Of a stretch of DNA of 10,916 nt, positions 1,846-2,160 are shown one piece after another. Under the pieces are notes generated by a model. That model saw only the letters and a program-made list of their open reading frames with translations, had not been told where the DNA came from and searched no databases. The translations under genes and the position numbers were made by a program. The stretch's first letter is position 1, and each line of letters begins with the position of its first letter. Origin of the DNA: Escherichia coli (GTDB lineage: Bacteria > Pseudomonadota > Gammaproteobacteria > Enterobacterales > Enterobacteriaceae); the NCBI RefSeq assembly GCF_003334385.1, contig NZ_QOWN01000067.1; one strand, given 5' to 3'.

Positions 1846-1910
1846 ACTTAGATGTCCGTCTATATCAGATGGGCGTCTAAGTTACCAATTCTCGTCTGAT
1901 GGCTACATAC

Positions 1911-1930
1911 GGCGGTCAGTTTACGCTTAC
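1911..1930 (-). repeat. IS66-family terminal inverted repeat (left end)
   Basis: Minus-strand 'GTAAGCGTAAACTGACCGCC' lies directly at the junction where the IS3-family orfB reading frame resumes at 1931. Inner extent of the IR is approximate. Confidence 0.6.
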
Positions 1931-2160
1931 GAAACTGCTGGGATAACAGCCCAATGGAGCGCTTCTTCAGGAGTCTGAAGAACGAATGGGTGCCAGCGAC
2001 GGGCTATGTAAGCTTCAGCGATGCAGCTCACGCCATAACGGACTATATCGTTGGATATTACAGCGCACTAAGACCGCACGAATATAATGGTGGGTTACCA
2101 CCAAACGAATCAGAAAACCGATACTGGAAAAACTCTAACGCGGAGGCCAGTTTTAGTTGA
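1931..2160 (+). pseudogene. IS3-family (IS911-like) orfB transposase, 3' fragment truncated by the IS66 insertion
   Basis: The frame opens exactly at the IS66 terminus and reads ...[61 protein letters not shown]..., the conserved C-terminal signature of IS3-family OrfB, with stop at 2158-2160. The N-terminal and catalytic parts are absent. Confidence 0.85.

Follow-up and report, generated by a model that had tools for sequence, protein, structure and literature searches.

The fec locus of Escherichia coli carries a point at which the intact end of an IS66-family insertion sequence directly adjoins the interior of an IS3-family transposase gene, and the question is whether one element simply landed in the other or whether the junction arose in another way. 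The DNA analysed (the window) is a 10,916-nt E. coli chromosomal segment in which the fecIRABCDE operon (3058-10603, minus strand) has IS debris on both sides; the junction lies between positions 1930 and 1931. A preliminary description made from the letters alone had read it as a precise nested insertion, the IS66-family element interrupting an IS911-like orfB. Comparison with other E. coli genomes places the junction at exactly this base and indicates that it was very probably left by a deletion anchored at the right end of the IS66-family element, ISEc23, and not by a simple landing.

The junction and the elements that it joins

The features that enter the argument are, in window coordinates:

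1-77, minus strand: left end of IS186/IS421 (IS4 family), inserted in tnpC of ISEc23, with a one-base ambiguity (G at 77)
78-1930, minus strand: right-hand 1,853 bp of ISEc23 (full length 2,532 bp), with 1 mismatch to the copy in the sister genome GE3 over 77-1930
78-1042, minus strand: 5' part of ISEc23 tnpC, with a premature TAG at 359-361 (NCBIfam transpos_IS66)
1073-1423, minus strand: ISEc23 tnpB (PGAP name on the GE3 copy; NCBIfam IS66_TnpB)
1420-1845, minus strand: ISEc23 tnpA (PGAP name on the GE3 copy; NCBIfam IS66 TnpA)
1911-1930, minus strand: ISEc23 terminal inverted repeat GTAAGCGTAAACTGACCGCC, a true element end with 8-bp duplications outside it at five independent sites
1931-1938, plus strand: GAAACTGC, the 8 bp adjoining the ISEc23 end, in single copy at this locus
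1931-2168, plus strand: last 238 bp of an IS3-family element orthologous to K-12 IS911B-1, comprising the OrfB C-terminus and the right inverted repeat
1933 to the stop at 2158-2160, plus strand: 75-aa OrfB C-terminal frame, beginning just before the catalytic E (MERFFRSLK)
2169-2500, plus strand: yjhV-like gene fragment (NAD(P)-binding protein), the long-standing chromosomal neighbour of the IS3-family element

When 5,426 complete E. coli genomes were scanned, alignments to other genomes split exactly at 1930|1931: matches to ISEc23 alone run to 1930 and a few chance bases further, and matches to IS911B/ISEc52 alone start at the base corresponding to 1931. The junction is present in 83 of these genomes. 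Judged by sequence, it is thus a matter of exact identity to known elements and not of chance resemblance, and the IS66-family terminus adjoins position 1931 as originally proposed. A simple insertion of ISEc23 would be expected to have duplicated GAAACTGC, of which there is only one copy here.

The left-hand element carries tnpA, tnpB and the DDE transposase gene tnpC consecutively, as expected of the IS66 family, tnpC being broken in the window by the TAG codon and by IS186. Its reading frames matched the NCBIfam models IS66 TnpA (2e-25 and 2.2e-23), IS66_TnpB (1.6e-35) and, for the truncated TnpC, transpos_IS66 (1.4e-33). The name ISEc23 is that given by PGAP to the GE3 copy, whose sole difference from the window over 77-1930 is at position 361, where GE3 and other copies have G and the window has A, turning a CAG codon of tnpC into TAG. 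The 2,532-bp ISEc23 copies in many E. coli genomes likewise differ from the window over 77-1930 only at 361, and other copies share the tnpA-tnpB-tnpC order and the GTAAGCG termini.

The ends of ISEc23 form an imperfect inverted repeat pair, GTAAGCGTAAACTGACCGCC (window 1930-1911, which on the plus strand is ggcggtcagtttacgcttac at 1911-1930) and GTAAGCGTCAACGGAGCACC (GE3), and both begin GTAAGCG, a start typical of IS66-family terminal repeats. That GTAAGCG marks the terminus of the element rather than an internal stretch was borne out by six copies read at both ends (strains 22184, 2/0, Z22-2, 25-07338, O104:H4 C227-11 and R8), which occupy five different sites with perfect 8-bp duplications directly outside GTAAGCG...CGCTTAC. 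The duplicated sequences are CAAAAACT (strain 22184), GGAATCTG, GGGAAATG, GGAAAAGC and GGAGAAAT, the last at one site common to C227-11 and R8. Five of the six copies (2/0, Z22-2, 25-07338, C227-11, R8) measure 2,532 bp, and that of 22184 measures 3,785 bp because ISEc52 is inserted within it. Eight base pairs is the length reported for IS66 target duplications (PMC6778807).

The fec-linked ISEc23 departs from this pattern, having in GE3 GGAGAAAT on one side and GAAACTGC on the other. We ascribe these mismatched flanks to a later deletion and did not count them against IS66 membership. Unlike copies at other sites, the window's ISEc23 therefore has no matching duplication, and in addition IS186 interrupts it at 77 and its tnpC contains a TAG; owing to these last two lesions it is a dead copy. 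All five duplicated 8-mers, and GAAACTGC at the window junction, are purine- and A-rich, and several matches to the ISEc23 end elsewhere extend a few bases into 'GAAA...'. This may reflect a target preference of ISEc23, as it appears from these sites uncorrected for background composition.

To the right of the junction, the window from 1931 is contiguous with K-12 (NC_000913) from 4509564 onwards, within the annotated IS911B-1, at 99.6% identity over 3.4 kb and 99.3% over the 270 bp from 1931. The remnant is closer to ISEc52 (96.6% identity to nt 1012-1246 of 1,250) than to canonical IS911 (93.2%), and its assignment to the IS3 family is settled by DNA identity to ISEc52, IS911 and K-12 IS911B. 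The preliminary description had an OrfB frame resuming in frame across 1931-2165. Alignment to IS911 and IS3-family references did find this stretch contiguous with an IS3-family orfB, the frame running from 1933 and the IS3 DNA to 2168 rather than 2165. The 75-aa frame matches positions 310-368 of the 369 of NCBIfam transpos_IS3 (E 6.4e-17, below the full-length cutoff) and keeps the E...K motif (MERFFRSLK), both D residues having been deleted.

The right-hand boundary of the remnant is equally well defined. The annotated end of K-12 IS911B-1 corresponds to window 2168, after which comes the yjhV pseudogene, and window 2136-2168 aligns to the right repeat of ISEc52 up to nt 1246, with the terminal ...CA at the boundary; the remnant ends ...TTGACCACAACA as against ...TTGACCACTTCA in ISEc52. 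Over 2161-2168 the remnant ends ...CCACAACA, while ISEc52 and IS911 end ...CCACTTCA. Its last 4 nt are AACA, not TTCA, and since K-12 IS911B-1 has the same four the variant terminus is an old feature of this IS3 copy. Absent from the window are the 5' 1,011 nt of the element, including orfA, the frameshift site and the left end.

The window remnant and K-12 IS911B-1 share an orthologous site adjoining yjhV and fecE and have their right end at the same base. The yjhV flank is common to K-12, GE3, SF-088 and R8, and the same remnant stands at the same yjhV site in K-12 and in hundreds of genomes that lack ISEc23. The IS3-family element is thus older than the junction with ISEc23. Of the order of events proposed at first, the part that places the IS3-family element earlier stands; the part that has the IS66-family element simply landing in it does not, the junction being, on the evidence below, a probable deletion endpoint.

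The far flank of ISEc23 in sister genomes

The window stops within IS186, short of the far end of its own ISEc23, and the deletion is deduced from near-identical sister genomes. GE3 differs from the window at three positions over 77-10600 (361, 6401 and 9454; 99.97% identity over 10.5 kb) and has the same locus without IS186 and with a complete ISEc23 of 2,532 bp. Had ISEc23 simply inserted in an intact IS911-like element, the upstream half of that element and a second GAAACTGC would be expected beyond its far end. Such an insertion would account for the intact ISEc23 terminus and for the precise point at which IS3 sequence resumes in frame, and the far end that would decide it for the window's own copy is outside the window. 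In GE3, however, neither the GAAACTGC duplication nor the upstream IS3 half is found at the far ISEc23 flank, which is ...TTACTGGAGAAAT (with GGAGAAAT as the 8 bp at its end), a non-IS3 sequence adjoining an IS2 fragment and a degenerate ilvN-like gene. In GE3 and its sisters this flank, ...CTGGAGAAAT, derives from an unrelated spot 6.5 kb away.

The GE3-type layout recurs in MB06232, HCP5S3_I4 and 25-07338. Left flanks were inspected at six loci among the 83 junction-bearing genomes, and the far flanks of the five sister loci with the identical junction comprise four of GE3 type, one papX (AR_0017) and none from an IS3-family element. The GE3-type layout has a 249-bp IS2 left-end fragment (GE3 locus 6889-7137), as against a different segment of equal length in SF-088 (6052-6300).

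A nested insertion has both halves of the interrupted element and the duplication on both sides. Strain 22184 offers a true example, with ISEc52 inside tnpB of ISEc23 as a 1,250-bp insert with a 3-bp duplication; the GE3-type sisters have GGAGAAAT facing GAAACTGC. We also looked for the reciprocal junction, IS3 5' sequence followed by GAAACTGC and the ISEc23 left end, with a query made of 80 bp of K-12 IS911B ending in GAAACTGC and 80 bp of the ISEc23 far end. None of the 5,426 complete E. coli genomes contained it as one piece; four hits reached 80% coverage or more, all of them in two pieces, spanning 161-650 bp of record for a query span of 130-160 bp. Moreover, in the precursor described below the IS3-family element is already a 795-bp remnant cut by IS600, so that there was no intact element to interrupt. 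The sequences compared thus do not support the nested-insertion reading of 1930|1931, to which we give only a very slight chance.

A left junction, of the flank with the left end of ISEc23, was found in 51 genomes and the simple insertion in 27; a wider left-flank segment of GE3, reaching 8 bp into ISEc23, was found in 28. By these counts, the GE3-type left side appears to survive in only about 24-28 of the 83 junction-bearing genomes, and the remainder must have been rearranged further, like AR_0017. In that genome the fec-side junction of ISEc23 leads into a papX flank (locus 4300-7100), and the left junction of GE3 type is found at a distance of 158 kb in opposite orientation, which, as read from the sequence, is the mark of an inversion through recombination between two copies of ISEc23.

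The precursor state and the missing 6.5 kb

The sequence into which the far flank of GE3 once continued can be followed in CUVET19-1426, ETEC6 and SF-088, which have no ISEc23 there and in which the flank runs on through adh' fragments, acuR, a DUF2254 gene, a BCCT transporter gene and IS600. IS600 in turn directly adjoins the IS911B/ISEc52 remnant in 767 genomes, at the same point as in K-12, corresponding to about nt 455 of ISEc52 and leaving 795 bp of the IS3-family element. A composite of the two maps is collinear as one piece in SF-088 and others and at least 80% covered in 633 genomes, and in SF-088, at the same locus, the two ISEc23 flanks of GE3 map 6,527 bp apart. CUVET19-1426 and ETEC6 were rejected as sole empty-site references, having lpxM/IS1 in place of fec beyond IS600; SF-088 and R8 were used as the empty-site and precursor references.

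If ISEc23 once stood at the far site as a simple insertion, its right end should be followed by GGAGAAAT and the adh' sequence GCCTGCG..., and this predicted junction was found at 100% identity in 27 genomes. O104:H4 C227-11 has a 2,532-bp ISEc23 at that site with a perfect GGAGAAAT duplication; it was set aside as a direct precursor and kept as supportive, the simple insertion being present and the fec side absent. A 7,322-bp precursor query, consisting of the ISEc23 right end, GGAGAAAT, the 6.5-kb interval, the 795-bp IS3 remnant and yjhV, has an unbroken match in R8 (100% coverage, 100.0% identity) that continues into fecEDCBA. The ISEc23 of R8, 2,532 bp long and without a mismatch to that of GE3, has GGAGAAAT on either side; adh'-acuR-DUF2254-BCCT-IS600 and the 795-bp IS3 remnant come next.

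The window lineage has the R8 arrangement minus 6,535 bp directly adjoining the right terminus of ISEc23. The missing interval comprises the right-hand copy of GGAGAAAT, adh', acuR, the DUF2254 gene, the BCCT transporter gene, IS600 and the first 557 bp of the IS3 remnant; GE3 and the window lack exactly this interval, and the sequence resumes at IS3 nt 1012. By sequence comparison, R8 is therefore in the exact precursor state. K-12, SF-088 and R8 keep 795 bp of the IS3-family element, whereas the window keeps only nt 1012-1250, and the first ~454 nt are missing even in the precursor state. Since the far flank is unrelated DNA, the R8 arrangement survives and the IS3-family element had already lost its 5' part to IS600, the junction is best read as recording a deletion endpoint.

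The history would then comprise five steps. An IS911/ISEc52-like IS3-family element would have inserted adjoining yjhV, upstream of fecE, an event common to the lineage with K-12, and IS600 would have removed its 5' part to leave the 795-bp remnant. A degenerate alcohol-dehydrogenase fragment lying about 6.5 kb upstream would next have received a simple insertion of ISEc23, with duplication of GGAGAAAT, giving the R8 state. The loss of the 6,535 bp adjoining the ISEc23 right end would have joined its intact terminus to IS3 nt 1012, and in the window's genome ISEc23 would finally have gained a nonsense codon and an IS186 insertion in tnpC. The first three steps and the product of the fourth can be read from existing sequences, whereas the mechanism of the fourth we infer.

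One way for the loss to happen would be for the ISEc23 end to attack GAAACTGC in the same molecule in a transposase-mediated reaction, a classical IS-adjacent deletion that needs no unseen intermediate. Alternatively, a second ISEc23 copy of the same orientation could have inserted in the IS3 remnant, duplicating GAAACTGC, and RecA-dependent recombination between the two copies could then have deleted the interval together with one copy. By this two-step route the IS66-family element did literally land in the IS3-family element, if transiently. Both flanks resemble ordinary ISEc23 targets (purine- and A-rich 8-mers), recombination between ISEc23 copies occurs in the lineage, as the AR_0017 inversion shows, and Agrobacterium offers a documented case of IS66 copies that recombined and left 8-bp flanks that do not match (PMC6778807). 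However, the intermediate, in which IS3 5' sequence, GAAACTGC and the ISEc23 left end are contiguous, was absent from all 5,426 genomes, although it could have been short-lived; a precursor with one copy was found in 27 genomes, and the route takes one more event than an adjacent deletion. We consider two-copy recombination possible, with the balance somewhat against it.

The final sequence is alike for both routes. Crossover mapping by differences between ISEc23 copies is uninformative here because the copies are identical or nearly so: those of GE3, R8 and three unrelated copies are identical, and that of O104:H4 differs at 3 sites. Within the deletion model we lean towards one-step intramolecular transposition by ISEc23 rather than two-copy recombination. 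We know of no established transposition chemistry for the IS66 family, and for this reason the one-step route is plausible but unproven.

A deletion independent of transposase, illegitimate or by replication slippage, might also have ended by chance at the ISEc23 terminus. No target duplication accompanies the junction and the IS66-family mechanism is uncharacterised, both of which are compatible with such an event. The endpoint nevertheless matches the ISEc23 terminus to the base, which would be rare by chance, and there is no microhomology between the ISEc23 end (...CGCTTAC) and the deleted IS3 side (...GGCGTG). We regard a deletion of this kind as having a slight chance.

The IS-anchored deletion finds a parallel in the 270-kb IS66-flanked deletion of pAt15955, where mismatched 8-bp flanks were used earlier as the signature of an IS66-linked deletion (PMC6778807). 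Both cases have a single intact IS with non-matching 8-bp flanks, one flank coming from a simple insertion and the other from DNA that is distal in the precursor. Unlike the pAt15955 precursor, which carries two IS66 copies (PMC6778807), the only precursor found here carries one, which makes a one-step intramolecular event at least as likely.

Insertion sequences around the fec operon

The locus has three IS layers, with IS186 inside ISEc23 and ISEc23 adjoining the IS911-like remnant. The reverse complement of 1-77 equals, by eye, the left end of the annotated K-12 IS186A from CATAAGCGCTAACTTAAGGG (CATAAGCG) onwards, and homology to the intact ISEc23 of GE3 starts at 77. The terminal sequence CATAAGCGCTAACTTAAGGG... 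and a GC-rich target agree with IS186/IS421, the uninterrupted ISEc23 reading CCCCGGAAGGGGCGG|AGGTG at the insertion site; IS186 prefers GC-rich targets. No complete E. coli genome has IS186 inside the chromosomal, fec-linked ISEc23. In two plasmids (from TUM14664 and 100416), an IS66-family element of 97% identity has IS186 at this very point, suggesting an IS186 hotspot. At the other end of the window (10840-10916), about 240 bp beyond fecI, lies a divergent IS1-type left end that aligns to the part of AREA_486 annotated with an IS1-family transposase CDS, so that the fec operon is bracketed by IS elements on both sides.

The K-12 KpLE2 IS cluster upstream of fecE (IS911B / IS30D / IS600 / IS911B-1) is the same fec-side IS graveyard, and it shares the IS600|IS911B-1 and IS911B-1|yjhV junctions with the precursor lineage of this locus. 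The two differ in that K-12 has IS30D and no ISEc23, and that in the window lineage ISEc23 and IS186 are present and IS600 is gone. The same island contains, about 6 kb upstream, an older and diverged IS66-like terminus (87% to the ISEc23 end; SF-088 locus 589-735) that adjoins the final ~115 bp of a further IS3-like element. Strain 22184 (locus 4323-8107) has an ISEc23 within the terminal repeat of this further IS3-like remnant, with the duplication CAAAAACT, and it is the tnpB of this ISEc23 that holds the 1,250-bp ISEc52 with its 3-bp duplication. With three independent IS66/IS3 junctions seen, IS66-type and IS3-type elements appear to have hit each other repeatedly in this island.

The elements involved are all catalogued, ISEc23 by name in 24 papers and IS911B/ISEc52 and IS186 as annotations of K-12 and RefSeq records. 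Among public complete E. coli genomes, 83 already contain the junction in annotated form, and deletions anchored at an IS are textbook knowledge. The preliminary description was thus correct in what it observed and over-simple in how it interpreted it, and the result is an annotation detail rather than a discovery, of small significance beyond annotation and in keeping with ordinary mobile-element wear. The junction, together with the private IS186 insertion, is a possible lineage marker for the fec-linked island. The locus also carries a lesson: an intact IS end adjoining a truncated IS is no proof of simple nested insertion, since here the other flank and a surviving precursor reveal the loss of 6.5 kb with acuR, the DUF2254 gene, the BCCT transporter gene and IS600. 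It is conceivable, though in our view unlikely, that R8 paired with GE3 or the window constitutes a natural record of one-step intramolecular IS66-family transposition, together with a purine/A-rich target preference of ISEc23 and recurrent targeting of IS3-family elements in the island.
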